Below are positions 1-26,929 of a DNA stretch of 38,865 nucleotides, piece by piece; position 1 is the first letter of the stretch, and every line of letters begins with the position of its first letter. Both the position numbers and the translations under genes were made by a program. Source of the DNA: Psammoneis japonica (lineage: Eukaryota); the NCBI GenBank assembly GCA_008632985.1, contig QPGO01000003.1, positions 930,001 to 968,865 on the forward strand. Reading direction: 5' to 3'. The notes beneath the pieces are model-generated. The model was not told where the DNA came from, did no database searches, and saw only the letters and a program-made list of their open reading frames with translations.

Positions 1-546
1 ACACCTGTTCCCACTTTGGAAATGCCCCACTCTGCCACACTTGCCACTCATTGCACTCTTCATTGTCATCTGACACATGGTGTTTCTTTTTCATTGATCG
101 CACTGAGCATGCTTTTCTTCGCCCAGTCCTCCCATGGTCCTGCCCAGCCCATTCGCGCTTGCTGAACTTGCCATCTGCCATGTTTTTCCGCATCAGCCAT
201 GACACCTTGCTGCCACTTGCCATGTCCGCTTTCATGAGAAATTTTGCCTTTGGGAACAGCTCTCTCCGTGCCATCTCTTCCACCTCTCTCTTCAGCGATT
301 GGTGATCAGTGGCAGCCCCCAACCGCTGCAACACTGCTGTTGGCCTCGGGCCATTGGGCACTGCCTCTGCCCCTGCCGCATCCTTCTTTGCAGCTTTCTT
401 CCTCCTTGTTGACTCATTGCATCATTGTCAGTTCCTTCAGTTGCCAGAATCGTGTGGTGCAACAGGTCTTCAAAGGAAGACCGGCTTTGCACAATTTCAA
501 ACCTCTTTCTTGACACTCTGATGGTGACACTGCTTCCCCTCATCAT
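1..546 (-). pseudogene. Degenerate hypothetical ORF remnant running off the window start; probably an accessory gene of a transposon
   Basis: ORF 292..546(-) continues after a frame break into ...KREVEEMARRELFPKAKFLMK..., which looks protein-like. It lies in the TpA-depleted compartment. No family recognised. Confidence 0.3.
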
Positions 547-744
547 GCATTTTTAACTGGCATTTCTTTCCAAAACAATCACATTTGGCAATGTTCATGG
601 TTTTTTTTTTGAAAACAACATCCTTGGTTGCATTTGTTCAAATTCAAGAGATGAAATGTTCAGTTCAAACAGTGTGGTTAATTGTTGATGATGAACTTGA
701 CATGCAACTTGATTGTTGCATTTGAAACTTTTAACCACACAGAT

Positions 745-2030
745 TCATGCATGAACATCAATCCCTTTGAAGGGCTGAAGTTTGCACCCATGCACTCTTA
801 ACCTCTGATTGCTGCTTGGCGCCAAAATTGATCTCCAGTCCACTTCTTCCACAGCGTCCTCCTTGAAATGGACAATGACAAAATTGCTGCACCTTTCCTT
901 GCACGAGCAATCAGTCATGTGATCAAATGCATTTGTCACCTCACAAACACAACCAATGAAATGCTCGACATGATCATGATGGATCTTTTCTTTCTTCATT
1001 TTTAGATGATGTCTCCACCATTGTCTCTCCTTCTTGTCCCCACAATGACAGTTGGAATCCTCACCTGATTCCATTTTCTCAATGATCTCCAATGTCCAAT
1101 CATTGACCGCCCTTGGTGTCAATTCAAAGAACTCCAATTCATTGCACCGCCACAACCTGTGGGGTTTGTCTTGCATGAGTTGTTGCTCAAACAATTCCGC
1201 CAGCTTCCTGGCATCAAATGCAACACCCTTTCTCTCCACAACCAGTGAGTGCACACCTCCCAAACCATTGTCCAATGAAAGCAGTCCGCATCTCCCGCTT
1301 TGGTCCATTCCACAGGCAGGCAAGCCAATGGTTGAGTCTTCTCTCAATGCATCAACGTCTTGCTTGTCAATTGCCAAACAAAGCTTGCCCCCCCTTGACC
1401 CAGCAGCTAAAAGATCTAGCACCTCATTGTTGTGACAGTTGTTCGACCAAAAACGGTTTTCCTTGCCTGTCCGGGTGTGTTGCTGTTAAGCTCCAATGCT
1501 GCCGGGTTCTGTGAGCATTCCTTGCACGCTCAATGATCTCACTTGCATGCTCGTCATTGTTGTGAATGGAGAACATGGCGTGGGTGGCATGCATGTGTTC
1601 CCCCACTTCTTTGCTCCATTCCTGCATGTCCTCATGCACCTTGCTCATGATCCTGCCCTTGGTTTCCCACAATTCCTTCCATTTTTCCTTGACGGTTTGT
1701 TCTTCCCTCTCTGTGTTTTTCCAACAAATCTTCCAAATTCCATCAACAGATGGAGGGTCTTTGCCCAAGTCACTCCTTGAGATGCTGCTGCATGACCCAA
1801 TTAAACAAAACATGTCCATGCAGTCTCTTTGCAGGTGCGGGTCCCAGGAGTGTTCCTTCCTCCCCGTGCCAAACAAGCAACTTGGCTCTTCTCATCTCCA
1901 TCTTTTCTTCTTTTCTCTCTTGTTTCAGACTGTTCGCCTCTTCAAATTTCTTTGAGTGGTCATCAGGCCAGCGTGCCAGCAACAAATTGTTCTGGATGAC
2001 AGAATCCATGGTTGAACTGCAGGTCACTTG
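745..2030 (-). pseudogene. Degenerate, frameshifted hypothetical ORF (Lys/Glu-rich), divergent from the Plavaka-like transposase
   Basis: Chained minus-strand ORFs 1770..2027, 1424..1876 and 745..1422 have charged, protein-like composition and no Tyr. An AT-richer spacer follows at 550-745. Confidence 0.35.
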
Positions 2031-3941
2031 TCAAATTGTTGTGGTGCGGATGTTGCTCTTGATGCATTGAAACCATGCCAGCAGAGCCAACGGCCATGGA
2101 ATCACAGTTGTTTTTTTTACCGTGCATGCAAGGAAAAGAACTGACAGTGAGTGGTGACCACATTCCAACTCACTCTTTCCTTGGAATTGGCAACTCTCAC
2201 ATTGTCATCAATTGTTCAATCTGAAAGCATTTGATGACCCCAATGCATGCTTTTGACAGGGAACTGTGAAAGCACTCATTGATGCAAAGAAACAAATGAG
2301 CGCAATTTTTGCACCAATTTTGTGTCTTGTTTCCTGTTGCCCCTCACCACACACACCGTTTGCATGACCAAACCCAAGCAGGAACCATTTGCACCATTGT
2401 TCTCACCAATGCGCTGCTGTTTGTTGCCACAAAACCTGCAAAATGGAGCTGCTCAATTCCAACAATGAGGGTGAAGAAGCAACTGCCTGTCCTTGTTGCA
2501 AGCAGTCATTCCAGCGCATGCTTGGTCACTTAAATCGCAATCCACAATGCCTCTCTGTTGCTCATGAAATGGCAAACTTGGCGGGTCAAGATGCATCGTG
2601 ACCCGCCTTGTTTCCTGATGATTGAGTCAAAGTGGTTGGTCGGTGGAGCACCTCTGGGAATGCAAACATTTGGCACGGAAGTTCCAGGGGATTCAATTTG
2701 TCCTCATTGTCAAACGACACTTCCGCACATGGATTGAGACGATCCAGACAAGGAGCCTCTGTTTCCAATGTTTGCATGAGCAGTTCCACAGGGGCATCCA
2801 AACAACCATCTGACGCTCCATGGTCACCAGCATTCGAAGACAACATGTCCCCTCTCTCCTCCATCTGTGGCAAAGACAAGGACAATTTCATGTCACTGGA
2901 GATGCTTTCAGACAAAAGCAGCGATTCAGAAGCGAGCTCTTTTGCCGCACTTCCAGACATCACCATGGATTGCTCTGCCAACAATGAGGCAGATGATGTG
3001 CAATCATCTCAAGGGGATGGGTCCTCCCTGTTAGATGACAGCAGATTGGGCAAAATTTGCCAATGCCCAGCCGAGGTTGCCTTCACCGGCTTGTCATCAT
3101 TGAGCAACCCAAACAGGGCCTGTGCGGAGCTGAGCAAGCTGACAGATGACTGCAGAGCGCCGCTCCACCTGTGCGATGACATTGTCTCATTTGTCGAAGG
3201 GCGCTGCGGCATTGCATTCAAGCTTGGCACTAAAATGCCTTGTCGCGGTGCACTGATGGAAACTCTTTCCAAATCATTTCCCAGACTAGAACAAGAGATG
3301 ATCCCGGTCAACCTGGAAAATGCCAGTGGCCAATGTGGTGTGAAAACGGCAATGGTGCCACGATGGAACTTCAAAGAAGTGCGCCAATCACACATGTCAG
3401 ACACTCACACATGGGTGAAGAAAAGCAATCTTGCAGACCCAGCCCATCCTTTTGGCATGTGTGTTGCCAAGGGCTCAGATGACAAATGCATCTTGGCCGG
3501 AGAGTGGCACAGGAGCATGCATTTGGCTGGAGTCAAGGATCCACTGAAACAGTTCCTGGAAAGTTTGACAGTTTGTGTTGACAAGACAGCACAGACAGCT
3601 TTGATGGGATCTTCTTGTGGAGAATCTGTGACAGTGACCTCAGTGCATGTGGCTTTCAAACAGTGGCACAACAAGGCAAAGTGGCTTCTGCAGCCAAACA
3701 GCAGTCCAATGCGTGCAAGTTGGAAAAGGGGCAAAGTCTTCATGACCACCACAAGCTTTTAAAAACCACACTTCAGCCTCTGCTTGATGCAATGGAGTGG
3801 GGCGGCTTCAGGTGTCATGTGCAATGAGGAGATGAGATCCGTTCCCTGCATGTGATTCCAACCACAATCCTGATCAACGGGGGTGCAAAGAGTGGAGACT
3901 GCCCAGTGGGAAGGTGCGGTGCAAAGAGTTGTCATCAACGT

Positions 3942-4118
3942 TCATGGACTGGCGGCATCAGGACAATTTAATGGACATCTAGGACAGATGACAATCGTGT
4001 GCTAGATGAGAAAGAAAGTGAGCAAAGGAGAGATCATCGGATCTCTCCATGCTGTCTGTGCCAGTCTGCCAGTCTGTCCAACACAAGGGAGTGCACTCCC
4101 CATCTCGGATGTCTGTCA
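3942..4118 (-). repeat. 3' LTR (177 bp; carries an extra 8-bp CCAGTCTG duplication)
   Basis: Aligns end to end with 6406-6574. Confidence 0.9.
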
Positions 4119-4127
4119 CCCTCCCCT
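4119..4127 (-). promoter_or_regulatory. Polypurine tract
   Basis: AGGGGAGGG immediately upstream of the TG of the 3' LTR on the minus strand. Confidence 0.75.
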
Positions 4128-4147
4128 GATGAGCAATGCAATGCTCA

Positions 4148-6206
4148 TCAAGAAAAGAAGCGACAATCCAAATAAAATGAGAGGACCAGAACAGCAGAAC
4201 AAAGAAGAGCGCCAAAAGAAATGGCCAAGACTTGGTCCACAGACACAACAACAACCAACAATGATGTCCCATCAAGTGACGAGCATGTCGGGAATGAAAC
4301 ATCCACCCCGCGATCAACGCATCGGTCTTCGACAAAAAATGTCAAAGGCAGTTCCCAACAAATCTTTTGGATGAATTGAGTCATGCACCAAAGAACAATT
4401 TCGTCAATCCACAAACAATCGACTGCAATGGGACATTCTGGCAAGTCATCCTGTCGCCAAAATTCATCGGAAGAGATGGGGCCAAAAATTGGAAATCCAC
4501 CATTGCAAGTGACACGTTGAAAATGAAGCAACAGCATCCCACCTGGCAAACCAACACTTCTGCCACACTTTGTGTTGCCCTTGAAAAACACATTGGAGAA
4601 ACAAAATGCATCACAAAAAAGCTCAACATCAGAAGAACAGTGACGCATCACAGGTGAGGATTGCACGGCATTCAAAACATGGTCATCAAGCAAGGCATCT
4701 TGGTGGAAAGCAGAATTCTCAACAGCCTGACATGCATCCTCTGCGCCACAGGAATCCCTCCCCTGATCAATGAATGCAGGGTCATCATCGGGGATGGTCG
4801 ACAGGTCAGGAGTGCCAGGAAAAATGCCATTTGACACAACAATGGTCTTGACAGCAAAGGAAAGAGGTGACACTGGAAGAGTTGGTGTGATGGTCAAGCT
4901 TGCACACTTCCTCTGCACAATGTTGCTCCCTCCCTTGATCAGAAAAGGAAGAATCATCATCAGCAATGGTGGACAGGTCCGGAGCACCATGGAAAGTGCA
5001 CACACGACAACGGTCCTGACAACAGAGGAAAGAGACGTGGCAGCAGAAGGTGGTGAGACGCCGTGGCCCTCTTTCACAACCACCCTGCTTCTGTTGGTCT
5101 TGCTTGGACAACAGAAGGAATGACGGCATCACACATCTGAAATTGATGATGGCCAAACCAAAAATCCAAGTGCAAATTAACTTGACAACCAACAGATGAC
5201 AGTGGCGCATGGGTGGCAAGCAGCTTGGGTGCAACCTTGGCAACAGAGGGCAGTCCATCCTGGAGGTGAATGTGACCATCTTTGTGTGGAACAATGGGTT
5301 GGCCAGAAGCAAAAAAATTCAGGGTCTTGTGCAGGCAGGAGCAGACGTTGGCAGGAAGCACCATTGATTTGGCAGGAAGTTCGAGGGATCCAGCATCAAC
5401 AACTGCAGATGGCTTGTCCTCAGGCTCCACAACAGACACAGCAGACTTGACATTCAAGGAAGTGGTGTCCACAGGGTCCATCTGAGCATCCATGGCGAGT
5501 GCATCTGTGACATGAGATGCAACAGTGGCGCCAGTGTCACATGCAGTGGACCCAGCAACTGGGCACAATTTGCACTCAGTGTGTGCATGAGAAAGCAAAA
5601 AAATCTTCAACCCATTGGTCATGGCTTGCCTGTGCTCTTTTGGACCAGGTGAATGAGTGGCCAAGGTTTTGGCAAGATCTTCAGGAGTGGGTCCTGCAGT
5701 GGCAGATGACGGAGGTGAAGAACTTGGGGCAGACAATGAGTTTGGATGCAGGACATCAAGGATGTCATCCCAACAATCACAACACTGAAAACCAGGACGA
5801 AAATGGAGACGAGTGGTCCCAACATGTGTCGTTGTGGTGTCATGACCTTCCGAAATTGCTTTGATCATAGATTGGCAAGATTCAGACCAACCTGAGAACC
5901 TTGAGGAGTGGCCACAAAGAGAGGAGTCTTGTCTGTGAATGGTCCAATGCACGTGAGATCTTTGGTCAGTGCAGCTTGGGGAATGACAAGGTTCTGAACG
6001 ACCTCATGACAGAAAACAGCAGCGGCATTGCTCTTGAGGCCTTGAGGAGCAAATCCATCTAGAAGTTCTTCAGGAGCAGGCATCTTGTCGGAACAAAGGA
6101 CGCTCAGGCAATGATGGGCTTCAGGTGAGTGATGCTGAGGGTTGAACTCAACCAGCGTCGACTTGATCTTGGTCAAATCGACGGCAGCTTGGTTTTTGTT
6201 CACCAT
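4148..6206 (-). pseudogene. Frameshifted internal ORF of the LTR element; no RT, integrase or protease motif seen
   Basis: Starts MVNKNQAAVDL at 6206 and continues through ORFs 5074..5952, 4806..5312 and 4148..5083. Contains an internal duplication: FLCCQD...APDLSTIADDDSSFSDQGR / FLCCQD...TPDLSTIPDDDPAFIDQGR. Confidence 0.5.
4755..5060. repeat. Diverged tandem duplication, period ~175 bp, inside the LTR element ORF
   Basis: TCCCCTGATCA...TCATCATC...ATGGTCGACAGGTCAGGAG (~4759) versus TCCCTTGATCA...TCATCATC...ATGGTGGACAGGTCCGGAG (~4931). Confidence 0.7.
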
Positions 6207-6395
6207 GGTTGTGTGGAAAAAATCAAATTTCCACGTGGAGCTCTGGCATGTGTTCTGCGGTGGTCGTCCGATCACAAATCAAGAGGCAAAAAAACAGCTG
6301 CGACAATGATGATGATTTCAACAAAGAGAGGTTGCCAAGTCACACAACGGGCGTTGCAGCAGAGGAGCACAGAGGAAGAGGAACAGCGCACTGCT

Positions 6396-6405
6396 GCTCA
6401 CAACC
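6396..6405 (-). promoter_or_regulatory. Primer-binding site, tRNA-iMet anticodon-arm type (Ty5/copia style)
   Basis: Minus strand GGTTGTGAGC abuts the 5' LTR and matches the Ty5-type PBS GGTTATGAGC except for one TA->TG change. Confidence 0.7.
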
Positions 6406-6574
6406 TTGCAGACTGGCGGTGTCAGGACAATCTAACGGACATCTGGGACAGATGACAATCGTGTGCTAGATGAGAAAGAAAGTGAGCAAAGGAGAGATCA
6501 TCGGATCTCTCCATGCTGTCTGTGCCAGTCTGTCCGACACAAGGGAGTGTGCTCCCCATCTCGGATGTCTGTCA
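6406..6574 (-). repeat. 5' LTR (169 bp)
   Basis: Aligns end to end with 3942-4118. Confidence 0.9.
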
Positions 6575-6940
6575 AATGTTGCTCCCGTTTTTGCATGATG
6601 GGATGCAACGACCTTGACGACCCTTGGAAGGAATGCAAGCTGGTCCATGCTGGCAACTTGTTGCAAGTTCAGGACAAGGCCAATGACAAAAGTCTTGATG
6701 ACAGAAAGAGGAGTCACTGGAGGGAACAACTGCGCCACATGAAGCAACACAATGTTTCGACCAACAGCTTGCTGGGTGCGGACTTTGGCGAGCAACCATT
6801 TGGGGTCACTCTTTCCATGACCAGCGACATGATGCACCCACATGAAAATGACACTCTGAAAAGGGAGACAGGTGTGTTTGCAGACAGCATGACTGACTCG
6901 GTGAGAAGCGAGGCAGGGCGGGCTCCAGCCCCAGTGGCCG

Positions 6941-9900
6941 CCCGTTCTGATGTGACGACTTTCTTTGTGTGACATGTTACATCAATTTTCCAGTGAAAAA
7001 GTGTGTAGAATTCTGCTTTGATGTGACTCTTCATGTGCTTTTGTGCCAGCTTTCTGTGTGTCAGTCAATGTGTTTGGCTGCATTCCTGGGTGTGTCTGAT
7101 TTGTCACCACAGCGACCTCTGCAAAATCTCGATCGGATGTTGCGCCAAAAAAGCCAAATGCTTGGATCAATGCAATGAGGTTGAGGCAACAATGCAATGA
7201 GGTCAAAGGATGCAAATGGCGTTGAACTGTTTTTCTTGCACTTCTTCTGCCTTGCCCCACCTCATGCTGGGCCATCCACTGAGAGTGTTGAGCTCTCACA
7301 TCAGCTGTGATGTTGCCTTTCTTCTCACCATTGCACCTCACCATTTTGCACTCACTTTGCTTGTGCATGTCCAAGCGCTGGTCTGTCTTACAAAGGGGTG
7401 CACCACACCCAGAACAATGCCAACAAGTGACGCCCCTTGTGTTTTTGTTGCTGGCAGGTCCAACCAACCGACACATCCAACATGTTTTCTGGAGCACAGA
7501 TCCCGTGTGCCACTGTCCATGCTTTGTTTGCTCCTTCTTGGTTGCAGCTCTTGTTGTTGCACCGTCACTGTTGGCAACTCGAACGAGCTGAATGTTTTTG
7601 TTTGAATCGATGTGCCGAACCCCAGCAGCTGCACAGTGAGTGTCGTGCTCACTCAGTTTCTTGAGGTGTTTGCACATTGAGTCTGCAAACTTGCAAACAC
7701 TCATTTCACCACACTTGTTCTCATCATAATTTCGATGCATGTGGCGACAATCAATGATGCATTCACCTGTCAGAGTTGTCAGCAATTGGAGCCAGCAATC
7801 TTTTGCAGGCCGTGCTTTCTCCAGTGCAAGAATGGCCTGTCGTTGTTTGTTGTGTTCATCGATCAATGGCGGACATTCATGAATGAAATCCGCAAGCCTG
7901 GGACGCGGCAGCTCCTTTGATTCAATGCTTCCATGCTCATCTTTACAATTGGAAACATGGGGCTTGTCAGCTGGAAAAGTGAGACTGCAAGTGGACACCA
8001 TGTGCGCCACACTCGAGTTGCTCCAGGCATGCACCAACGCAACAATTGGTGTCTCGGATGTGGTTGTCGACACAACAACCCAATGACCCAAAAGATGCCC
8101 ACCGTCTTCACCACACCATGCCACTGAAATGTGCTCCAAGTGTTTCTTTGGGCAGAACTTGGCATTGTTCTTGACGATGAATGTTGAATGCGTGCCAAGA
8201 TTCTTGTGCAATTCTGTGCAAGATGGAACACTCCCAAACCAGGCATCTCCACCAACCCAGGAGACTGATTCTCCATTCTCACCTTTTGCACCCTCAACTT
8301 GCCAGAGGGCCTCAGCAGCATGAGCTTGCATGGGGGAGTCATCCGGCAAATGTGATTGTTCCCCAAACCATTTCTTTGCCTGTTGCTTTTCTGGCTGCTG
8401 AACAATGTCTTGGTGGATGAGAATCCCCGAGATGCACTCAATGCCATTTTTGAACATGGTGCCAAGTGGCACTGGCTTCCTCGGCTCAAAGGCACAATTT
8501 GGCAGGCCACCAAACTTTGAGGTGTGCGGCGTCCAAGCAGACATTGACTCACCCAACATCAACCGCACAACAGCCTTGAGCAGCGCCCAAGGCTTTTTGT
8601 TCATCGACATCATGCATGGCAAAAATGCATCCCATGGTGCATCACACTTGTCAAGATGCCAATGCTTTTTGTCCACCCATGCACACGTGGCAGCGCTCTT
8701 CCAACACTTGAACACCTTCATGTTGATGCACTGTCCAAAATCTTGGTGCTTGCTCAAGCCGTCTGATTGCCCTTTTTTCCACAAATTCTCTGCACCATTC
8801 TCAACCTGTGTCACACCAGCAATCAGAAGAGTGCAGCACTGCTTCACAAACCAATCAGGATCTTCCACCTTCTCGTCACAAAATTTTCGACCAAGCATCT
8901 TGTGAGTGTCATGATGCGGCACCCTTTCATCATCCAGGCACTCATCAACAATTTTTGCATGTCCTGTAACATCAGGGAAGAGATGCTCAAAGAATGCATC
9001 AACAATTGGATTTTCGAAGTTCACGTGACTCAACTTTGGGCCCGGCGTGGTTGGAACAGTGAACGGCGATTCGGTGATGCACTCCATCTCACCGCGCACT
9101 TTCCACACTGTCATTTGGTTGGTGCATCCCTCACGCCCATGCGGCATGCTCACGGATTCCTTCTTGGAGATCTCTTCATCTGCAAGTTTCAAAAAATCAG
9201 CAAGATGCTGCTGCTCCGGTGACAGTTTCTTGGGTTTCTTTGGGGGAGGCTCTGCATCATCAAACTCATCAAATGGCAACTCTTCCTTGCCATTCTTGAC
9301 AACTTTCACATTTTTGCTAACAACAAGCACATGTTTTTCATCCTCAGGAAGAATGTCAAAATCAATTTTCCACCCGGTGGTTGAATTTCCGGCTTTGATG
9401 GTTCCACAAAAAAGCACTTGGTTTCCTGCCACTTTTGGCATGCACTGCCTCTGTGTGTCTGTCACCAGGGCATGAAACAAGCAATGCCGTGTCACTTTGC
9501 ACCACTTGCCGATTCCCATTCAGCCACCGCCAGGGCCAGTGCACTTCTTGTTCTTTCTTGAAGTCATGGGATGTGTTTTTGAAGATTTGTTGCTGCCATT
9601 GCTTGCTGGTGGGCCCAAGTCTCCCTCATTGTTGTCATCGCGCTGCGCACGTGCTCCAGGAGACCTGTTGCGTTTTGCTGTTTGGGCATGTCACCTCTCT
9701 CCAAAGTTGGGGCTGCATGAGTTGTCGTCAAAGGAGGTGGAACAACTGTGTCAGGTGGAGAAACTGGTGAATGAGCTTCAACGGGGCCGTCGGGAGCATT
9801 CACGTCGGACGTCATGGTTGATTCGAGCAAAAAAAATTTGTTGGACGCACCATGAAAGCGGCACGATGACATCAACAAAACCTTGCAAGATTCTGAAGTT

Positions 9901-10059
9901 TCTTGCCTTGTGCCCCTCTTCCATTGAACATTGGCTTGCAGCTGAGCAACAATCAAAAGTCCAAAGAGCTTTGGACAAAGTTGCACAGAGTTTCCAAAAA
10001 TGGCCATTTTTGATGTGATGTTTGATGTGACATTTTCAAAAAAATCACATCAGAATGGG
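6941..10059 (-). mobile_element. piggyBac-superfamily DNA transposon (dead), 3.1 kb, with 15-bp TIRs
   Basis: Left TIR CCCGTTCTGATGTGA (6941-6955); right TIR is the reverse complement of CCCATTCTGATGTGA (10045-10059). Subterminal TGATGTGA repeats at both ends. Encloses a piggyBac-type transposase. The canonical TTAA flanks are not present. Confidence 0.85.
6982..9519 (-). pseudogene. piggyBac-like transposase (DDE_Tnp_1_7 type) with C-terminal Cys-rich domain; true N-terminus probably at ATG 9815 across a frame break
   Basis: Motifs L(G)ESMSAW.P....GGLP...F.PRKP.PLG, GDAWFGSV, IDEHNKQRQ..LALEK and CWMC...CWHCSGC..PLC. The first catalytic Asp (DES) reads Gly. Only one Tyr in 845 aa. Confidence 0.85.
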
Positions 10060-14600: not shown

Positions 14601-16600
14601 TGGGTTTAGCTGATTTGGTGGAGCCAGGCTCCTTTGGATGATGCAAGCACCCAGCACAGCTGAACTTGATCCTTCATCTGTCTTTGGACTCAACGGCAAG
14701 CGATCTGTCACGTTTTAGATCAGACTCGCCCTTCAACAAAATAAAAAGCAAGAGGGTGGGAATGCACACATGAAGGCAACCAATGTGCCCTTTGCACAGA
14801 GAGTTGGCTTGTTGGGCAATGGAGAGTTCCTCCAAGCAGTGATCCAGGTGAGGAGGGCACTCAGCTCTGACACAGGAGGCGGTGGTGGGATTGCTTGTGG
14901 GAGTTTTGTTGGAAAAGATGTGCCAGTTTTCCCTCAGGTTGTCTGCAAGGCAAAAGTCAGCAGCGGAATGGCGCAGCACATGCTTGGTGTTGGTCGCCTT
15001 GTCAATGATGTGAAGGCATGACACATGGGCAGCAACTTCCTCTGAGGCAACAGAACAACACTTGGACGGGTCAAAGTGCTGGCAGAGAGTGGACTTGTCC
15101 AGCCACGACATGTCGTTGGGGTCCAGTGGAGGAGACAATGCAACCGAGCATTTTCCGGCAACAACTGGCCAAGAGGTGGGCAGCTTGGAGGTGGGACCTT
15201 TTGAGGAAGAAGGAGATTTTGCCGAATCTGCAGTTTCTGACAAAGGGGAAATGTTGGCGCAGTGAGAGTGCAGTGCACCTCCCTGGATGACAGCACATTG
15301 CCAGACAATGGAGGACGTGCTGGGTTTGAGTGTGATGCAGGCCTGGACTTCTTGTTGTGGACAGTCAAAGAAGGCTCTTGTGGTGTGCATGATGACAACA
15401 GGAGAAAAAATGGACAAATGAGAAAAAGGATGCACACAGGAGGTGAAGGAAAAAGGGCACATGCTGTCACACAAACAGGTGTCATCTTTGCGTGTCCTCC
15501 TGATGTTGCGTTTGGTTTTGGATTGATGCTCTCATTTGTTGTCATCATCCATGCAGTCAGCCCTCTGACCACACATTCTGCAACAAAAAATTGTGAGCAA
15601 TTTGCTGTGCTTGGGTTGTGTGCCAGGTTGCTCCTTGGGACAGCGCTTCCCAAGTTCATGATTCAACGTGCAATTGATTTTTTCTTCGTGCACCTCCCAA
15701 CGGGCAAGGGAAGCACCTGCCAACATCACAGAGTTCTTTGTGTTGCTGATTTTGTCTGGTGTGAGGAATTCCTTGACATTGTCTGCCTGGGATCCCGGGC
15801 AGTTAGAATTGCACAAGACTGGAAAGCTGTCAACAAACATGCACCACTCCTTTTGGGCATTGACATGGCAAAAATCTGCACAAACCAACAGTCAAAGTCA
15901 TTTGGTTTGTGCTGGACATGACACATGACGATTTTGGTGACAAAGCATGCACTGTGAAGGTCTTGTGCACGGTCGTTGATCAATTCTTGGAGGTTTTTGC
16001 ACCGTAAAAAACGGAAACAAGGCTTGCTAGAAACAGGATCATTTGGGTCGTCACCAGCAATGATCATGTGAACAAATTCTACCATGGCTTTGATGCTGCG
16101 GTGAAGTTGCACGAGGTGCTCCTCTTCTTCAACTGTCTCTCTGGGCAACTTTTGGAGAAATGGAGAGCTTCCTCCAAATTTCGATGATGAAGGACATGCT
16201 CACCTTTCAGCGCACGGGAATTCTTCAGGGACCAACCATGAGTCTGGATGCAAGACCAAACATCAGGGCAGCCAAGAGTTTTCCTGATGATGTTGTTGGT
16301 GCAGATGACTTCCATGACATGTGGAATTCAACACAACTTCAGCTTGTGGCAAAGGAAGGGAAGAGTGAGAAATTGCAGAGAGGGAGTCCATTTTGTTGTC
16401 TCCAAAAACTGCTGTTTGAATGCACACATTGAAATCAAGCTTTTGAGCTTGGGACCAAACAACTCCATTCCAAAACCATTGGCAAAATGTTCTGTTTCAT
16501 CAAAATCAACCTCATTGGGAAATTGGAAGGAAGGGTCAGGGTCAACCTCATCGCGGGACGGGGTGAAGTCGTTGATGACCGCCATGGCAAGAAGTCAGTT
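11696..16600 (-). pseudogene. Very large (~4.9 kb) frameshifted ORF of unknown function, copy 1
   Basis: Chain of minus-strand ORF pieces: 16328..16585, 16079..16315, 15726..16148, 15532..15888, 14674..15474, 14179..14646, 13829..14182, 13491..13853, 12596..13309, 12313..12543, 11696..12202. The 13790-16527 part is collinear with the 673-aa ORF of copy 2. Confidence 0.55.
12869..13048 (-). repeat. 72-bp (24-aa) coding tandem repeat, ~2.5 copies
   Basis: HNGIAADNKLD / HDGLAADNELN / HDGLVADNELN; the His codons begin at 13048, 12976 and 12904 on the minus strand. Confidence 0.85.
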
Positions 16601-17130
16601 GTAAAATGCACGTGAATCACAACAGCACATGCTCAGGTCAAATGCAGTTTGGGGGACAGGATGCACTGTTGTGAAATGCGCAGACAATTGCGCATGTAGA
16701 ATGAGTGCTTGAAACCGGGTAGAGAGCCAGGCACTGAAATTCTGGGAAGTGCTGGAAAAATGAGGCCAGAAGTGCACATGGGGGTGACTTGGGTGCAGAG
16801 GACATGCCAGCCACTGCGGCGAGGCATGTGGGAGGTGCAGCTGTTGAAAACAACTGTCAAAGATGACATTTCAAAATGAATGCGATGTTGTCATCAAATT
16901 GCAATGTGACAAAATCAAGCAAAGGACAAGTTTAAATTGATCAACAAAAAACAACAAAAACAAACAGGCAACAAATGTCCACATGAAACACCACAAATGA
17001 AGGCAGTGCATTGTTCACTTTTACTTTCTAAACAAAAGTTCAACATGCATGCCATCAATTGGCACAAATTGTGCAAAGAGAGTTGAACACCACTGCACTG
17101 CAGCCTCTGATGGAATGATTGCAACCAACA

Positions 17131-17470
17131 CATTGGAACTCACTTTCTCCTTTCTGCAGATCAACTTGACTTGGCAATCTTTCATGCACACTCAAAGCAA
17201 TCAATGACCCCAATGCATGCAATTGTGTGTTGCGTTTTCCTTGCTTCCCAACACAGCAATCCACCCTCTTTCCTCTTTCCACGATCTGACCAAGTGATGC
17301 CATTGCTCCACAACCACAGTTGTGCAATTCACAACACTGCATTGCCGTTTTTCAAAATGGATGGCAATGGTGTTTGGCAGGGTGAGGATGGGGTGGTTGC
17401 ATGTCCGTGTTGCAAATGATCATTCACTTGCATGCTTGCCCATTTCCATCACAACCTGCAATGTTTTTGG
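17131..17470 (+). mobile_element. 5' fragment (upstream region plus zinc-finger N-terminus) of a second Plavaka-like element related to 2161-2560
   Basis: Shared upstream blocks CATT..AACTCACT...CCTT and ATGACCCCAATGCATGC, then CAAAATGG. Protein ACPCCK*SFTCMLAHFHHNLQC versus ACPCCKQSFQRMLGHLNRNPQC. Confidence 0.65.
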
Positions 17471-17579
17471 TCACTCATGAGAAGGCCAACTTGCTGCATT
17501 GAGAGCCTGTCACCCCCTCTCCCCATTGCCAGATGTCTCCATCAATGTTGTGGATTGAACTTCCCCTTCCAGGAATGGA

Positions 17580-20361
17580 GACACTTGTCCCTGACACAGT
17601 GGAAGTGGCAGTGTTCTGTGGGACAACTGGCAAGAATCGGCAGTCTCATGACTTGTTTTGGGTCTGGCCCAGATCTGCGCACAATGTTTTTGAAGCAGCA
17701 GAGCACTGTGACTGGAGCCAACAAATGAAAGTCCCTCACAGGGAACAAGGAGAACTTCAGCTGATCCATGTGCACATTGAGAAGTCCTGTCTTGCTGCCA
17801 CTGCCAATCACAACATTGTTCCATGGCCTTTTGTCATCCAGCGAGAGATGCTTGAATGTGCTGGCAAAGAGTGCGATGTCAGGATGGGAGGGACCATTGT
17901 GTTGCAGGTCCAAGTCTTGAAGTGCAAAGTCAAACTGAGCACAATTGTGGTGCATCCAAGTCAGCATCAACTTCATGTCAAACATGTCATTGCAGTGTTG
18001 ACCAACGGGACTTCTGCTGTTGGTGACTGCCTTGAAGGACAACATCTTGCCACATGTGTCCATGACAAAGAAACAAGCTGCGGCTGTTTTCCCACATTGA
18101 CACCAGGTGCAGTTTTTGCCGTCAAAGTGTCCATTGCAGAATTGACCACAAGATGTGCAAAATCCCTGCACAGTGACGTCCTCCCGCAGGAAGTGCAGAC
18201 AGCCCGATTTGTCACACAAAACTTTTGAGTGCTCCTCATGCCAAAGCAAGAAGTTGAATGGTGGCGGATGGCTCAGTCTCTGGAGCTCAACCTTGTTTTT
18301 GCAAAGCTGAATCAAGTCAAGAATGTCTGCCACCATGGCCTTGATTTTGGAGGACTCATTGGCATCAAAGATTTCATCAGGATTGAAAACATCAAGACTG
18401 TGTGTGGCCTTGGGTTCAGCTGATTTGGTGGAGCCAGGCTCCTTTGGATGATGCGACTGCCCGGCATGACCAAACTTGACCCTTTGTCTGTTGCCAGACT
18501 CAACTGCAACCGATCCATCTTGTTTTGGATTTGACTCACCCTTCAGCAAAATGAAAAGCAGAAGGGTGGGAATGCATGCATGAAGGCACCCAAAGTGGGC
18601 TTTGTGCAGAGTGTTTGCTTGTTGGGTGATGGAGATTTCCTTCAAGCAGAGATCCAGGTGAGCAGGGCACTCAGCTCTGACAAGAGAGGTGGTGGTGGGA
18701 TTGCTTGAGGGAGTTTTGTTGGAAAATGTGTGCCAGTTTTCCCTCAAGTTGTTTGCAAGGTAAAAGCCAGCAGCGGAATGGTGCAGCACATGCTCAGTGT
18801 TGGTGGTGGCCTTGTCAATGATGTGCAGGCGTGACACATGGGCAGCAACTTCCTCTGAGGCAACAGATTGACACTTGGACGGGTCAAAGTGCAGGCAGAT
18901 GGCAGACTTGTCCAGCCACAACATGTCATTGGGGTCTGGGGGAGGAGACAAAATTTCCAAGCAATTTGTGGAAACACCCAGCCAAGAGGAATGCCATTTG
19001 GAGGGAGGACCTTTGAGGGGAGAAGAAGATTTTGCCAGATCCATGATTTCCAACAAGGTGAGGATGTTGATGGCAAGAGCACGGTGCACCTCCCCAGACA
19101 ACATCACATCACAAGATGCCAGAGGAGGTGCTGGGTTCAAGAGTGACTTGGTCTTGACCTTCTTGTTGGGGATGGTCAAGGAAGGCTCTGGCGGGGCACA
19201 CAAAGTCAAAGGATCCATGAGACAACAGATGCACACAGGCAGCCAGTGAAGGCAAAGGGGGAGGGGGTGCTTGCCATCATGCAAACAGGTGCCATCTTTG
19301 TGGGTCCTCCTGATTTTGTTTTTGTGGGTCCTCCTGATTTTGCACTTGGTTTTGGATTTGCAATCTTGTTTGTTGTCATCATCCATGCAGCCAGCCCTCT
19401 GATCATGCATTCTGCAATGAAGCATTGTGAGCTGCTTCCCACACCTGCATTGCACACCAGGTTGCTCCTTGGGACAGCGCTTCCCAAATTCATGATTCAA
19501 CATGGAATTGATTTTTTCTTCGTGTGCCTCCTGATGGGCAAGAGAATTGCCTGCCATTGTCACAGAGTTCTCAATGTTGCCAAGTTTGTCTCCTGGGAAC
19601 CCCTTGTTGATCTTGTCCTCCTGGGAAGCCAGTTCACTGGAATCACATGTGACAACAAAGCTGTTGATGAACAGACACCACTCCTTTGGGTGTTGACAGG
19701 TGAAACATCAGCATGAACCAACAGCACATGTCCTTGGGTTTGCACTGGATGCAGCGCATGACAATTTTGGTGACAAAGCATGTGCCGTGAAGGTCATGTG
19801 CTTGGTCATTGATCAATGCTTGGAGATTTTTGCACTGCAAAAAATGGAGACAAGGTTTGCCAGAGACAGGGTCATTTGGGTCATCACCGGTGATGATCGT
19901 GTGCACAAAGTCCACCATTGCCTTGATGTTGCGGTGAAGCAGCATGCGGTGCTTCTCTTCTTTTTCTGTCTCTGTAGGAACTTTGGAGAAATGGAGAGCT
20001 TCCTCCAAATTTTGATGTCAAAAACCACATTCACCTGCTTTCAGCATGCAGGACTTCTTTGTGGACCAACCACGAGTCATGATGCAGGACCAAATGTCTG
20101 GGCATCCAAGAGTTTTCCTGACAATGTTGTTGGTGCGGACAACTTCTGTGACATGTGGAATGCAACGTGACTTTGGCTTGTGACAAAGGAAGGGCAGAGC
20201 AAGGAACTCTGGAGAGAGGGACCAATTCATTGTCTCCAAAAACTGCTTTTTGGATGCACGTGTTGAAACTGTTCTTTTGAGCTTGGGTCCAAACAACTCC
20301 GCTCCAAAGCCATTGGCAAAACACCCCAACTCATCAAAATCACACACATCAGGAAATTGGA
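17580..20361 (-). pseudogene. Large unknown ORF, copy 2 (diverged direct repeat of ~13790-16527)
   Basis: ORFs 17542..19563 and 19643..20008 align with copy 1 (e.g. HHPKEPGSTKSA.PKAT, GQFC.GHFDGKNCT, RPWNNVVIG, GDDPNDPVS.KPC). Carries a private 24-bp tandem duplication at 19297-19342. Confidence 0.75.
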
Positions 20362-20803
20362 CGTTCAATGAACCATGGCAGTTGGGTGCGGGGCAACCAC
20401 ATGCTGGTGTCATTTGTGAGGGAGGCAGCAGATGTGATGTTGGAGGAAGGGAGGCATTGGTGGAGTTCAAGGTTGAGTTGTTTGAGGACAATGCTGAGAA
20501 CTGGTGCCACAAAAGGAGAGGCAAGAGGGCGTCCTTGGCAGAATCCTTCGGGTTGAAGGAAGGAATGCCATGTGCTGGTGGGGTCTCAATGCCAACATTC
20601 ATTGGGAGCATTGCAGAACAGGTCAAAAAGGTGCAGCAGGTGTCAGAATTGGGGGATGTCATTGAGTTGTTGGCAACGGCCTGTTCCAGCTCCAGGTGAT
20701 CTGCGCGGGTTCGATTCCCATCATTTGGCAATTTGTGCATTCAGCGCATTGAACTTTTTCAAAATCCATTTTTTGCCAAATCGAAGGGCAAGTGCACACT
20801 TTG

Positions 20804-21258
20804 CTTGTTGAGGTCATTTGGGTCTTTGTGAAGGGCAATGAAGCAGTTGGAGGAGAGGATGGCGTGCATGTCAGGAGGGATGGAGTTGGTGAGCAGGAGG
20901 AGCAGAAGGTCACGGAAGGCCAGGAGATGGGGACGGATTTGTGTCATGGTGGGTGCAGAGGTTTTGAAAAGTGCACATGCTTTGAGCAGGTCCATTGAGT
21001 CTGCAAAAGGTCCAGCCACAGTTGCTGGTTTGCATTTGCTCAGTGCCGAGAGTGGGTTGTCTTCAGAGATGTCAGGTGTGCCGGAGGAGGAGGGGGATGA
21101 CGGGTGTTGTGAGTGTTGGCTGTTGGATGATGTTGGATGTGGGGTGGGTGCAGAGATTTGATGACTGCAATTCTGTTTTCATCCACAGCAGCAATGGGGA
21201 GGTTGGATGTGACTTGATGGCAGGCAACTAAATTGTCCCAAGTCACCATGGCAGCCAT
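20804..21258 (-). mobile_element. Degenerate fragment of a CRE-like non-LTR retrotransposon related to the element at 33236-38865
   Basis: AGPFADSMDLLKACAL...RPHLLAFRD..LLLL.NSIP...SNCFIALHKDPNDLNK aligns with AGVFADSTDLFKSCAL...RPCLSSFRE..LLLLHGSIP...SNYFVALHKDASDLNK. TSNLPIAAV...IKSLHPP aligns with TSALPVAAV...ILKLYPP. Confidence 0.85.
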
Positions 21259-21459
21259 GTTGCAAGTGTGGCAATGATTTTTTCAGCAGAAAATCACGAG
21301 CCATTCTGGCCAAATTCAAGCCAAAAAGGAGCAACTGATCACTCTCAATCCTGCACAACTGGCAGGAAAAATTGTTTGCCACGCAAAAGGCCAAAGTAAA
21401 AGACCAAAACACAAGCAATGAGACATGACAAGCAAGTTGCACATTCAACAACATGCACA

Positions 21460-23300
21460 CCCATTGTGACAACTCCGTCCTCCTGACAAGCGACCCCACA
21501 ATGAAACCCTTGTCAAAGTCAGTCACACTGGGGTGAGCTTTGAAATCCTTGACAAGTTTTTCAATTGCTTCCAGAGACATGGCATCCTGCTTGATCTCTT
21601 GAGAGGCACCAGGCTGTGAAAAAACCATGCAAGCACAAATGTGTCATTGAGCACATCAAGACAACTTGCGGATTCTCTTGGCAGTGAGTGCATCGGCCAA
21701 CAATTGTTCTTGCACCAGCACTCTAAAGTTCTTCTTCCCCCTTTTCCTTGACAAAGGCAGCAGATGACAGCATTGCTTTGCCAATCCCCAGGACCATTTG
21801 TCTGTGCCCTCCGCAGCCATTTCTGGATGACCCTTGGGCATTCGATTGACTGTCACACCCATTTTTTGACCCATCATTTGCAACAATGTCTCCTCATTCA
21901 TGAAATCATCACAGGCAAACATCAAGTGTGGCAGAGATGTGGACTCATCAATCTCACCATCTTCACCTTTTGCTCCATCCATTGTGTGCTCACTGGTGGG
22001 GTTGTTTGGATCAATGAATCCAAGCTCACACAAAATTTGCTTTAAGCCTTTTCCTGGCTTGCAGCACCATCCACACTTCACTTTTTGAACCATTTCTTCT
22101 ACAGGCACATTGCCAATCTTGGCTGCATCACAATCAACTCATCCTTTTTCTTGCCCCTGATGTTCTTGATGTTCTTTTGAAGGAGTTTTTCATGGAGTTC
22201 AGGGTGCAAAAAAAACTTCTGAGTTTCAGTTTCTCCTGCAACAGGTGTGTCATGCTTCTGGGCTTGTCGTTGCTCCAGTGTCATCCAATGTGGTCCATCA
22301 TCATTGTTGCCAAAAAGCATTGTCTGTGCTGACCCTGCAGATGGCATGCCAACAGCCTCAGCACAAGGGCCTGAAAGCCCTCTGCCCAGAGAACATCAGT
22401 GGGGTGCATTTTGCTCTGGTCACTGCCAACTTCTGCATTCATCGCACATTTGTTGTAAATCAGTCTGCTGGCTCTCTGCTTGTCATGCCTGCAAGAATGG
22501 TCAAAGAGGAAATGACAATCAAGCTGCAGATGCATGACCTTCAAACAATCAACACAATCCTCCAGCTGGGCCAACATGTGGTTGTGGTTCCAGCAGCCTT
22601 CGTTGTTCACTCCATGCTCAAACTCTTGAAGAAATGGGCTCTCAGTCAGTTTTGGCTTCTGTTGCTTTTTGCCAAGTGCCACTTCTGCAGCTTCTTCATT
22701 GGTGCAGCATTTGCCTGCATGAGTTGCACTCATCTCCTCAAGCTTCTCTTGTGTCACATCAGCATCATGCATGAGGCCAACCTTGCAGCACTGGAACAAG
22801 GACTCCATTGTGCCTTCACCATCATCTTTTGGCATCAGAGGTCTTTTGCCATTGGGGCCTGACCAAGATTTTGTGCTGAGCAAGTTTTGCTTTAAAATGG
22901 CTTTGTCTTGTCCAAAGATCAGAGCTGGCTTTTCGTTTGGGTCCTTGCACACGCTTTTGCTCCCCCCAAATTGCACAAAACACTCTGTCTCATTTCAGCC
23001 GTTTTTCCTTTGAAATTTCCAAAATGCCCCGCAAAACAAATTGCGGTGATTGGTGTTTCCCAAATGTGGGTGTCAGCTGTGGCAAGAAATGTTGTCCCGC
23101 CTTGAGTCATGTCAACTCTCCTCAAGAATTGTCGTGCTGTCTGGAGTTGTCTCGTCGTTGTGTCTCAAATGGTGTTGTCTCATTGTTGTGCTCTGTTCTC
23201 AGCAAAAGGGAGCAGCAGCACTTGTGGATGCAACAACATTTGGGGGAGCTCTCAATGTCTCATCCATTTGACAGGATGAACAATTTTGCCTTGAAGGCAT
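21460..23300 (-). mobile_element. Dead IS630/Tc1-mariner-related DDE transposase (long-insertion type); the element may extend to ~24,300
   Basis: GQD(K)A..KQ...SW....RPLMPKDDGEG.M; EHG..NEGCW...M..QLEDCVD; FLFDHS..H; KGLKQILCE.G; DFMNEETLL; PKGHPEMA.EG...WG.AK; IEKLVKDFKAH...DFDKGF. Multiple frameshifts. No TIRs found. Confidence 0.7.
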
Positions 23301-24613
23301 TGTCTTGCACTGGAGGTCATTGAGAAGAAGTTGCAGACATCTGAATGATGGCTGGCTTTCACAACAATGAACAAGGTGGGAGTCAAAGCTCGAGGAAGGA
23401 TTGCAAGTGCAACAGAATTTTTTGAGTCTCTGGACACAATGTGATGTGTCTCAGTGTGAAGCATGTGTGAGACATCTTGGTCTCATCTGCTGCTGTGTTG
23501 CATGCCAAGAAAAGGACACAAACACTGCCAAGTAAAGGACACAAACACTGTGGGGTGTGCTGGTGTGGCACGCAAATGTGTTTCTCTGGAAAGCAGCAAG
23601 CTGGTGCATGAGGAAGAAGCAGCACCAGTGCAAGCAGTGTGGATGGCAAGACACTGGGAGAGGCAGTGCCATCATCATGGCATTTGCCCAGATTGGGCTG
23701 CAACTCACATGAAGTGACACACATTTCAATGTGTCTGCTTGGCGAAACTTCGTTTGCTGCAATCACGAAGGTTTTGTTCCCATCTGCAATCTTCTTGTGA
23801 AAACAAAACAGTGCCCACGCATCCATGGACTCACAGTCCTCTTGTGCAGGTTTTGTCCAGTGCTCCTTGGGTCTCATTTTTTGATCCTCCGTTGTCGAAC
23901 CACCGCAGCAGTTGGGGCGTTTGTCACAATCAAGAGCAGCCCAGCACGAGCACAGGCGCACAAGGAGAAATGAGCAGGCGGCAAACACGAGCTCAGACCA
24001 ATCTTCCTCTGATGGCACTTCTGGAACAGTTTTGTTTTGAACGCTCCAAATGACACCATGAATGGCTTCCAAAGCTGTGATTTGCCCAGGCTCAAGACGA
24101 GTGCTTCAAGCATCTGAGCTCACAACGACCATCTGGCACACGCTGACACCACAAACACCTGAACCATGGCCTGCTCCAACAGGTGCAAGAACATGGACAG
24201 GGGAAACAATTGAGAAAAAAGATGCCCAAGAAGGCATGACAGTCATCTTGAAAACTGAACAGAATGAAGTGGGACATGGCGCCATGTCAAACGACCATTT
24301 TTTGAAATGGTCAAAAACGTGCGTGACCATCCCGCCTTCGTTCCTCGCAACGAATTCCACGTGGAGATTTTGAAAACTTGCCACCGATAACCTTCCATCG
24401 ATCATCATGCGTTTCCAGTTTCTGCTCGCATCGCGATTTTCTCGTTTCTCGTCCATCATCATATCATCAACCTTGGCTCACTGTCTCTGCAATCCAAACA
24501 CAAAGAGCCACCGGCATTTCACTTTGTATCGGTATTGAAAGCACTACGATTCTCGAGCTTGGTGTCTCATTATAAGCATCAAAAAGTTCTCGAGAAAGAA
24601 TTGGAATAGAAAA

Positions 24614-26083: not shown

Positions 26084-26175
26084 GCGAGCTAAAGGACGAG
26101 AAATCAATAATTTTTGGATTCAATGATTCTTGGTGCTATAAGGATTTTATACACGGTTCCATGCGTCCCTAGGAA

Positions 26176-26754
26176 TTACTCTTCTTTGTAATCATCACCC
26201 GCACCGTCAGCTAGTTTCTCCTTAACTTCCACTCGGATTTCATTCACGTCATCTCCCTGCAGCTGATCTCGCATAAATTGACACTCGACACGCAAATTGA
26301 CTTGCTCCAACGCTCCACGAATGATTCCACAATAAATGTTTGAATAATGTAACTTTTCTGCCGAATTAGGCAACTCACAAAAGAGCGCCAGAGGATTTTC
26401 GTATATATACAGAGAAAAGGCATTGTCGTTTTCGTGTAAATGCACGTCGCACGATATTCCCAAAAACATGCGAAATGCCGTCTTGGCCACCACTTCAGCC
26501 GTATCCTTGAGAGACGTACAGGTGGGAACCGTCATGCCGTGTTGTTCCGACTTGGCGAGGAACTCATCGACGCATCGGATCCCAATGGAGTAGCCCATCT
26601 TTTCTAATTCCTCATTGACTTTTTCATAGTCTTCATAGTCCCGTACCAGTTCCGTCACGAGAGAGCCATACGTCAATGCAAATAGTTCGGCGTTAGCCTT
26701 GGGCATTTTCGTCCAGAGGGCGTGGCCCGACGCGGCGGCGACGGACTTGCTCAT
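26176..26754 (-). CDS. BET3: TRAPP complex subunit 3 (Bet3), 192 aa, intronless
   Basis: NAELFALTYGSLV..LVRDYED...VNEELEKMGYSIGIR.VDEFLAKS; ENPL..F.ELP; YSNIYCGIIRGALEQV; D.L.GDD.NEIRV. Confidence 0.96.
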   Translation of the reverse strand: MSKSVAAASGHALWTKMPKANAELFALTYGSLVTELVRDYEDYEKVNEELEKMGYSIGIRCVDEFLAKSEQHGMTVPTCTSLKDTAEVVAKTAFRMFLGISCDVHLHENDNAFSLYIYENPLALFCELPNSAEKLHYSNIYCGIIRGALEQVNLRVECQFMRDQLQGDDVNEIRVEVKEKLADGAGDDYKEE

Positions 26755-26929
26755 GGTGGGTTTGAGGTTGTGTGTTGTGTTGTGTGTTGCATTGCGTTTC
26801 ACCGTATGCACCTCAGACGCGGGCACCAAATCTATGTCATGAAAAGTTATAAAGACAAACAGGCAAGCGTCTGGAACAAGTGCGGCACACAATGCGACAC
26901 AAACGTCTTGTTTTCATGGGAGCCTCCTT

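Follow-up and report, generated by a model that had tools for sequence, protein, structure and literature searches.

Loss of TpA to TpG and CpA in degraded mobile DNA of Psammoneis japonica: a probable host hypermutation process

In this paper we looked at a stretch of 38,865 nucleotides from Psammoneis japonica (GenBank assembly GCA_008632985.1, contig QPGO01000003.1, positions 930,001 to 968,865 of the forward strand), here called the window, and at the blocks of degraded mobile DNA within it that have lost almost all of their TpA dinucleotides. The loss is real and sharply bounded, and it is probably best explained by a host-driven hypermutation of TpA to TpG or CpA (A:T to G:C, on either strand) in silenced mobile DNA. 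A process of this kind had been proposed from the letters of the window alone (the original prediction), based on a shortage of TA and an excess of TG and CA over 24 kb, and the exact counts bear out both. Between positions 1 and 24300 there are 67 TpA where 1624 are expected from base composition (observed/expected ratio, o/e, 0.04), while TpG and CpA reach 2586 and 2712 against expectations of 1516 and 1517 (o/e 1.71 and 1.79). CpG is also reduced, to 442 of the 1417 expected (o/e 0.31), and the remaining dinucleotides stay within ~25% of expectation, among them ApA, which is not depleted (o/e 1.23). The pattern is continuous: the TA o/e is 0.10 or less in all 24 one-kb intervals from 1 to 24000, and over the same 24 consecutive intervals TG and CA each have an o/e of 1.43-2.04, with a mean of the two of at least 1.59 in every interval. 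In the six frames of this block TAA and TAG together occur 110 times and TGA 1239 times, and the near disappearance of TAA and TAG leaves many long spurious open reading frames (ORFs). The features of the window are as follows.

1 to 24300, no strand: TpA-free, CpG-poor block of degraded mobile DNA, defined by composition and open at the left end of the window.
6982 to 9519, minus strand: relic of a piggyBac-like (DDE_Tnp_1_7) transposase ORF, 845 amino acids (aa), 1 Tyr, recognized by its homologs.
13789 to 16527, plus strand: copy A of an unclassified 2.8-kb repeat family, 77% identical to 17579-20361.
17579 to 20361, plus strand: copy B of the same 2.8-kb repeat family, overlapping the 721-aa ORF.
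17545 to 19707, minus strand: stop-to-stop ORF of 721 aa (673 aa in the original prediction), 1 Tyr, no Pfam family.
24400 to 26900, no strand: unaffected host genes, used here as internal controls, TA o/e 0.33-0.60, CpG o/e 0.9-1.0.
24786 to 25520 and 25286 to 26083, overlapping frames, plus strand: thioredoxin-domain gene (PF00085).
26179 to 26754, minus strand: BET3/TRAPP gene, 192 aa, 9 Tyr (PF04051, E 4.5e-37).
About 26930 to 28990, no strand: second TpA-free and CpG-poor block, flanked by BET3 and the methyltransferase gene.
29529 to 30791, minus strand: unaffected methyltransferase-domain gene (Methyltransf_12/25/31/11), TA o/e 0.63-0.66, CpG o/e 0.93-1.11.
33200 to 38865, minus strand: retroelement with a reverse transcriptase (RT) ORF at 33259-37020 (RVT_1, E 2.2e-8, YIDD intact).

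The borders of the depleted DNA are abrupt. The right edge of the first block lies at ~24300-24390 and can be resolved to ~100 bp: 24201-24300 is the final 100-bp bin free of TA, TA recurs at 24388, and the CpG density goes up from 24301. A sliding-window calculation of o/e had been suggested as a check on the original prediction and, when run on this window, it showed sharply bounded TA-free blocks and added the second one at ~26930-28990, where the TA o/e is 0.02-0.06, the CpG o/e is 0.13-0.23 and only 5 TA are found in total. The edges at ~24300, 26930 and 28990 each resolve to ~100 bp, and the TpA-free and CpG-poor intervals coincide to within ~100 bp. The genes between and past both blocks, which are uninterrupted ORFs, have TA o/e of 0.33-0.67 and CpG o/e of 0.9-1.1, and the methyltransferase gene starts ~540 bp past the edge of the second block. 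The earlier statement that the signature spares the neighboring genes thus holds for the thioredoxin-domain, BET3 and methyltransferase genes, which are all normal in TA and CpG, and the Tyr counts given at that time were exact (1 each for the 845-aa and the 673/721-aa ORF, and 9 for BET3 with its 192 aa).

The direction of the change can be followed in the piggyBac-like ORF. Its match to PF13843 (E 1.7e-3) scores 18.2 bits, where the gathering cut-off is 22.4, and it has 1657 homologs at E of 1e-3 or less, the best at 3.9e-146; two of the six homologs tested pass the PF13843 cut-off (P0001 with 26.7 bits and P0009 with 39.2 bits). The ORF was aligned with 33 homologs of at least 500 aa and of normal Tyr content. 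At the 13 columns in which Tyr makes up at least 50%, the window reads His 6 times, Cys 5 times, Trp once, Val once and Tyr never; at the 26 columns in which Tyr is the plurality at 30% or more, it reads His 12 times, Cys 7 times and again no Tyr, so that 19 of 26 are His or Cys. Control columns are largely retained (Trp 12/13, Cys 10/10, Phe 13/21). The codons at the replaced Tyr columns are CAY and TGY (Y, pyrimidine; R, purine), both of which are one-step products of TAY. Judged by its homologs, the ORF is a divergent piggyBac-like transposase relic that was apparently inactivated by changes of TAY to CAY or TGY. The conserved Arg columns read Trp (2) or Gln (2) at 4 of 13 positions, and since Arg to Trp or Gln is the mark of CpG decay, both the TpA and the CpG processes appear to have acted here. 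The products are about strand-symmetric, both in the protein (His 12, Cys 7) and in the block (TG 2586, CA 2712), and no clear strand asymmetry relative to the transposase ORF was found in the His and Cys counts.

A 172-bp direct repeat with 90.7% identity is present at 3947-4118 and 6411-6574, the second copy just downstream of the piggyBac-like ORF, and it may be a terminal sequence of this transposon family.

A second line of evidence comes from repeat copies A and B, which are 77% identical over 2731 aligned columns. Between them there are 110 adjacent double differences of CA to TG, while every other class of double difference occurs 12 times or fewer. Such a pair is most simply read as one ancestral palindromic dinucleotide that was changed to CA in one copy and to TG in the other. 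A uniform-rate CpG model accounts for ~44 of the 110, a model-dependent figure, and the attribution of the doubles beyond ~44 to TpA would depend on that model in the same way. The mass balance of the first block points the same way: deficits of 1557 TA and 975 CG stand against a surplus of 2265 CA+TG, so that CpG decay alone is insufficient and the decay of 5-methylcytosine at CpG (5mCpG) covers at most ~975 of the ~2265. From the replaced Tyr columns, the CA/TG doubles and the mass balance it can be seen that the substitution spectrum holds more than CpG transitions, and the direction of change that these comparisons show is TA to TG/CA.

The original prediction had extended the replacement of conserved Tyr by Cys or His to unrelated transposon families. 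This stands for the piggyBac-like ORF (19 of 26 columns), the family in which it could be tested. Among the 78 stop-to-stop ORFs of at least 110 aa in the TA-free DNA the piggyBac-like ORF alone has a transposable element (TE) related Pfam match at E of 0.1 or less, and no match to RT, integrase or gag was found at this threshold, which leaves the long terminal repeat element and the LINE fragment that had been placed inside 1-24300 without confirmation. The 721-aa ORF had no homolog at E of 1e-5 or less in a search of proteins of 396-1262 aa, and the remaining TA-free DNA showed no identifiable homologs in the Pfam search of the 78 ORFs or in the protein search with the 721-aa ORF.

Relatives of the piggyBac-like element in other organisms show that its composition is not the rule. 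When metagenome contigs were scanned with an alignment of the family, 80 loci were returned, and 70 of these have a whole-locus TA o/e of at least 0.49; in the same way, Tyr exceeds 1.2% in 52 of the first 60 homologous proteins, and the other 8 are Tyr-poor. Both counts indicate that TA poverty is not intrinsic to the transposon superfamily. Sharply bounded TA-poor blocks were found at nine loci (L025, L026, L027, L062, L064, L065, L036, L035 and L057), representing about five elements. In L027 the block at 5000-10000 has a TA o/e of 0.08 and a CG o/e of 0.75, and its flanks have 0.63 and 0.79, respectively; the block has thus lost TpA but not CpG. The opposite state is found in L063, L022, L029 and L069, where CpG is as low as 0.05-0.20 yet TA is 0.61-0.78 (L063, CG 0.05 and TA 0.61). 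The loss of TpA is thereby shown to be separable from CpG decay. Three TA-poor elements can be aligned with TA-normal relatives at 67-80% DNA identity. In these pairs a TA of the normal copy is matched by TG or CA in its TA-poor partner at 29/47, 35/73 and 30/46 sites, and the reverse is seen at 2/17, 2/14 and 3/12 sites, which gives 94/166 against 7/43 when the three pairs are pooled.

Some further observations were made on these loci. The piggyBac relatives L042, L063, L022, L029 and L069, from other metagenome organisms, together span CpG o/e of 0.05-0.20 and TA o/e of 0.46-0.78, and their hosts appear to methylate these piggyBac relatives without TpA editing. L025, L026 and L027 are near-identical; 11 of their 35 variable columns are single differences between TA and TG/CA, and 2 events are CA/TG doubles. 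The differences of L027 from L025 and L026 are concentrated in two patches of ~350 bp (4632-4981 and 7149-7498) that hold the cluster of 11 single differences, which could reflect ongoing editing at the edge of the block or a chimerism of paralogs or of the assembly. Since the patches are perhaps chimeras, they are not used here as evidence of ongoing or patch-wise mutation. No terminal inverted repeats were found at the edges of the TA-poor block of L027 among 10 short inverted repeats, and no TTAA ends were found in L027.

The enolase encoded on L027 is 91% identical to that of Seminavis robusta, which places its host among the raphid pennate diatoms. For the window, the nearest named homologs of BET3 are all diatoms, with Cyclophora tenuis at 72% (the best unnamed match is at 78%) followed by Cyclotella, Thalassiosira, Ditylum and Odontella at 60-66%; its host thus appears to be a diatom, and it is not Bigelowiella. 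The signature would then be present in at least two diatoms, that of the window and the raphid pennate host of L027.

The few TA that survive are not a random sample. Among those in 1-24300, 43 lie in YTAR, 24 in mixed flanks and none in RTAY, while the genes of the window have 36, 130 and 74, respectively (chi-square 73, p 1e-16). The same can be seen in trinucleotides, with TAA 40, TAG 21, TAC 9 and TAT 1 in the TE DNA compared with 44, 54, 65 and 77 in the genes. Four of the metagenome blocks have YTAR/mixed/RTAY counts of 17/9/0, 9/5/0, 23/28/2 and 9/7/0, and in the polarized pairs TA is kept at 0 of 42 RTAY, 9 of 103 mixed and 7 of 21 YTAR sites. TG and CA occur as often with R__Y as with Y__R flanks, so that the flank bias comes from the removal of TA and not from its creation. 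Based on these counts the removal of TpA was shown to depend on its flanks, with RTAY lost fastest and YTAR slowest. The trinucleotides of the product, with a TGY/TGR ratio of 1.17 in TE DNA and 1.13 in genes, are uninformative at saturation. Of the 67 surviving TA, TTAA, which is the target site of piggyBac, holds 19 and CTAG holds 9; both tetranucleotides are palindromes of the YTAR type, and those of the RTAY type, ATAT and GTAC, are absent from 1-24300.

Another question that is raised by such an extreme composition is whether other reads show TA at these sites. The public run X1 contains 88% of the sampled words from 20001-30000. Six of its contigs, which total 5897 bp and are located in 13932-24663, align to the window without a single difference or gap, and a 4323-bp contig with a depth of 58.8 covers the second block, its 9 differences all falling outside 26930-28990. 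This agreement speaks against an artefact, although X1 is possibly from the same sample. X1 differs from the window by single-nucleotide differences and indels in genes, so that it is not the same consensus. The run also informs on copy number. The summed contig depth is 101-5309 over 10001-23340 and ~38-64 over 23341-30000, and from this raised depth most of the first block is repetitive; the second block is at single-copy depth (58.8), equal to the flanking genes, although its copies may have diverged past the 90% threshold of the comparison. More than one kind of element was hit, plus one block that is now single-copy, and the process acts on DNA, its reach being confined neither to retroelements nor to sequence that is repetitive today. 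The process had been called repeat-targeted in the original prediction. The second block, however, is single-copy in X1 and so is the virus inserted in Bigelowiella natans (Mettrop et al., 2026, bioRxiv 10.64898/2026.01.13.699255), and in view of both, the target is better described as silent or foreign chromatin than as repeats.

Three other features of X1 can be mentioned. Its summed depth peaks at 5309 in 20673-21339, compared with ~59 for single-copy genes, and this most abundant repeat is unclassified. The contigs that match the repeat block exactly (13932-24663) have depths of 28-36, and the gene contig (24960-29278) has 58.8, so the repeat block may perhaps be on one haplotype only of a diploid cell. 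In X1 there is also one more C after 25314, supported by the full depth (58.8 of 58.8), with further indels at 26101 and 29038; this additional C probably points to a 1-bp indel error of the window assembly or to a strain difference, and with it the two thioredoxin-domain frames probably join.

A separate process that converts TpA to TpG/CpA, distinct from CpG decay and reverse in direction to fungal repeat-induced point mutation (RIP), was supported by every test that was run, and apart from its chemistry we regard the hypermutation process described here as likely. In this process an enzyme would be recruited to heterochromatin, the same DNA whose 5mCpG lasted long enough for 69% of the CpG to be lost, and TpA editing would be much faster than CpG decay. 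With a fast loss of TpA and a slow loss of CpG, young elements would be TpA-free and CpG-normal, as on the diatom contigs of the metagenomes, and in old ones both would be gone, as in the window. The window would be the saturated end state, with ~96% of the expected TpA gone and the effect stopping ~100 bp from genes. The chemistry that we favor, and only tentatively, is that a deaminase similar to TadA or ADAT2 turns the adenine of T-A into inosine in the DNA, since both the outcome and the 5' T match the enzymes of the TadA/ADAT type. Several points weigh against this picture. Inside the window the polarization is drawn from a single protein family (19 of 26 columns) and a single pair of repeats, the assignment to diatoms depends on one 192-aa protein, and X1 may be from the same organism or sample, which would make its agreement not fully independent. 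The retroelement 4 kb away is unsaturated, and thus being a TE is not sufficient. A strict single-strand rule, in which only the A in T-A-Y is changed, holds at 46 of the 72 informative sites (p = 0.024) and is weakly supported. Finally, TA is palindromic, so that sequence alone cannot separate A to G from T to C.

This last point leaves room for the same targeting with thymine chemistry, in which a TET/JBP-type dioxygenase makes 5-hydroxymethyluracil (5hmU) or 5-formyluracil (5fU), and G mispairing or misrepair then gives T to C. All of our results fit T to C equally well, and the flank rule can be written as R-T-A as well as T-A-Y. In dinoflagellates 5hmU takes the place of thymine with a preference for TpA, and 5-formyluracil pairs wrongly with G; we know of no 5hmU- or 5fU-type modification in diatoms. 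In the text of the B. natans preprint the authors prefer adenine deamination, by homology only (bioRxiv 10.64898/2026.01.13.699255), and we consider the thymine route rather unlikely. Much less probable is an error-prone patch repair by Pol-eta in methylated chromatin, in which A to G changes of the WA-motif type would be a by-product of the processing of mismatches left by 5mC deamination. The coincidence of TpA-free and CpG-poor blocks within ~100 bp is what such a repair would leave. The WA motif of Pol-eta would also hit ApA, however, and ApA is not depleted (o/e 1.23); in addition, the diatom elements of the metagenomes lose TpA without CpG loss, other loci show heavy CpG decay with TpA intact, and a removal of 96% is hard to attain as a by-product.

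The other explanations can be given very little weight. An ADAR-like A-to-I editing of transposon RNA that is fixed via reverse transcription would fit the 5' U that ADARs typically prefer, as stated in the preprint (bioRxiv 10.64898/2026.01.13.699255). It is largely refuted and hardly probable: the best-documented victim is a DNA transposon, both strands are hit about equally, and non-coding and single-copy DNA are equally affected. ADARs favor a 3' G, whereas the 3' preference here is for Y. According to the preprint, the B. natans changes also arise in place, in the integrated and transcriptionally silent genome of a DNA virus (bioRxiv 10.64898/2026.01.13.699255). It could also be argued that the elements have been TA-poor from the start, through a horizontal origin or through selection to evade a TA-reading nuclease, as 8 of the first 60 homologous proteins are Tyr-poor too. 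Yet the Tyr-poor relatives lie in sharply bounded blocks inside TA-normal diatom DNA and show the TA to TG/CA asymmetry when aligned with TA-normal relatives, conserved Tyr became Cys, which is an unusual substitution, repeat copies A and B changed the same sites differently 110 times, and the loss is common to unrelated non-coding DNA; this origin seems scarcely credible. A sequencing or assembly artefact, such as systematic miscalls at a modified base, is just as improbable. The indel discrepancies with X1 at 25314, 26101 and 29038 are typical of an unpolished long-read consensus, but X1 is identical over 5897 bp of TA-free DNA and throughout the second block, and the same signature appears in unrelated metagenome assemblies.

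Host-driven TpA hypermutation has one close parallel. In the original prediction no characterized pathway was known to leave this signature, which is outdated for the phenomenon, as this spectrum was measured de novo in the chlorarachniophyte B. natans (Rhizaria), where TpA to TpG/CpA hypermutation of integrated viruses is described (Mettrop et al., 2026, bioRxiv 10.64898/2026.01.13.699255). According to the text of that preprint, 231 of the 302 nuclear point mutations in the mutation-accumulation lines fell in integrated nucleocytoplasmic large DNA virus (NCLDV) and virophage sequences; 230 of these 231 were A to G or T to C, the GC-biased ones all at TpA, with a rate of ~6e-7 per site per generation in some lines only (bioRxiv 10.64898/2026.01.13.699255). 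The NCLDV insert is single-copy and transcriptionally silent with a TpA o/e of 0.45, and the genome holds 124 clusters of windows that are TpA-poor, CpA+TpG-rich and enriched in DDE and RT (bioRxiv 10.64898/2026.01.13.699255). An ADAT2-like DNA adenine deaminase was proposed by homology alone, and ADAT2 homologs are cited there as reported to act on DNA (bioRxiv 10.64898/2026.01.13.699255). As far as the preprint's text describes it, the two systems have in common the type of substitution, the dinucleotide target, the confinement to foreign or mobile DNA, the depletion of TpA with gain of CpA+TpG in clusters of 1-kb windows and the possibility of a single-copy target. They differ in the host, which here is a diatom (Stramenopiles), and in degree, the window being saturated at a TA o/e of 0.04 compared with 0.45 for the NCLDV insert, although our o/e may differ slightly from the Rho of the preprint. 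A strong CpG loss coincides with the TpA loss here, and the term CpG is absent from the preprint's text; the RTAY/YTAR rule is seen here, and that text is without the words flank, context and trinucleotide, while its supplements may hold such data. In the literature searched, no report of the signature in diatoms was found, and the B. natans preprint alone describes the erasure of TpA.

The resemblance to other known systems is partial. Fungal RIP is a heritable and irreversible change of C to T at CpA (G to A at TpG) by the RID/Dim-2 machinery and creates TpA. As in RIP, transitions at one dinucleotide riddle mobile DNA, wreck ORFs and spare the adjoining genes, but here TpA is destroyed and CpA and TpG are made (o/e TA 0.04, CA 1.79, TG 1.71). 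The same blocks also carry decay by 5mCpG deamination (CpG o/e 0.31 versus ~1.0 in genes), which likewise yields TpG and CpA; unlike it, the process described here removes TpA, and CpG decay is absent from the TpA-poor metagenome elements. In the diatom P. tricornutum, TEs, those of piggyBac included, bear H3K9me2/3, H3K27me3 and DNA methylation (PMC4504042). TadA and ADAT2-3, which act on tRNA A34 preceded by U33, and the ADARs share with our signature the A to G outcome and the 5' T/U neighbor, while the 3' preference for Y over R is unlike the 3' G of ADARs. We know of no natural enzyme that is guided by chromatin to deaminate the adenines of chromosomal DNA. The vertebrate APOBEC3 system is a further example of a deaminase-type hypermutation in a dinucleotide context against mobile or viral DNA, but its change is C to U in single-stranded cDNA and strand-asymmetric, whereas here it is A:T to G:C, symmetric and in DNA transposons in place.

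The retroelement at the right end of the window shows a weaker pattern. Its RT ORF has 1253 aa with 16 Tyr and 59 His, and an ORF of 718 aa overlaps it in another frame. Over 33.2-38.8 kb the TA o/e is 0.17-0.69, the CpG o/e is 0.67-0.95 and the GC content is 56-58%, and its TA contexts (mixed 72, YTAR 16, RTAY 9) differ from those of the genes (130, 36 and 74; p = 1.4e-4). One explanation is that the same TpA process may have only begun to act on the retroelement; another is that codon bias at 56-58% GC may give this pattern.

What is new here is the host lineage (diatoms), the saturation, the relation to CpG loss in old and presumably young elements, and the flank rule. If the reading is true, diatoms, which are among the most abundant marine primary producers, would have a genome defence by point mutation, and such a defence, so far seen as a fungal specialty with the opposite chemistry, would be present in at least two deeply separated lineages of the SAR group (Stramenopiles, Alveolata and Rhizaria). 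A bolder and more speculative option is that diatoms, and perhaps a large part of SAR in view of the chlorarachniophyte, have a dedicated, chromatin-guided editor of double-stranded chromosomal DNA, an uncharacterized adenine deaminase or thymine modifier that converts T-A to T-G/C-A with a preference for R-TA-Y; it would be a fast and irreversible genome defence and a functional mirror image of fungal RIP. The annotation of repeats in diatoms would also change, as saturated elements lose their Tyr codons and their TAA and TAG stops, form long false ORFs and escape Pfam (77 of the 78 ORFs here are without a TE-related match). The fast loss of TpA and the slow loss of CpG could serve as a clock. 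The search for the enzyme can be given a specification, namely a TpA target, RTAY preferred over YTAR, both strands and sharp, chromatin-like borders, and a natural A:T to G:C editor of chromosomal DNA would be of interest for base-editing technology.

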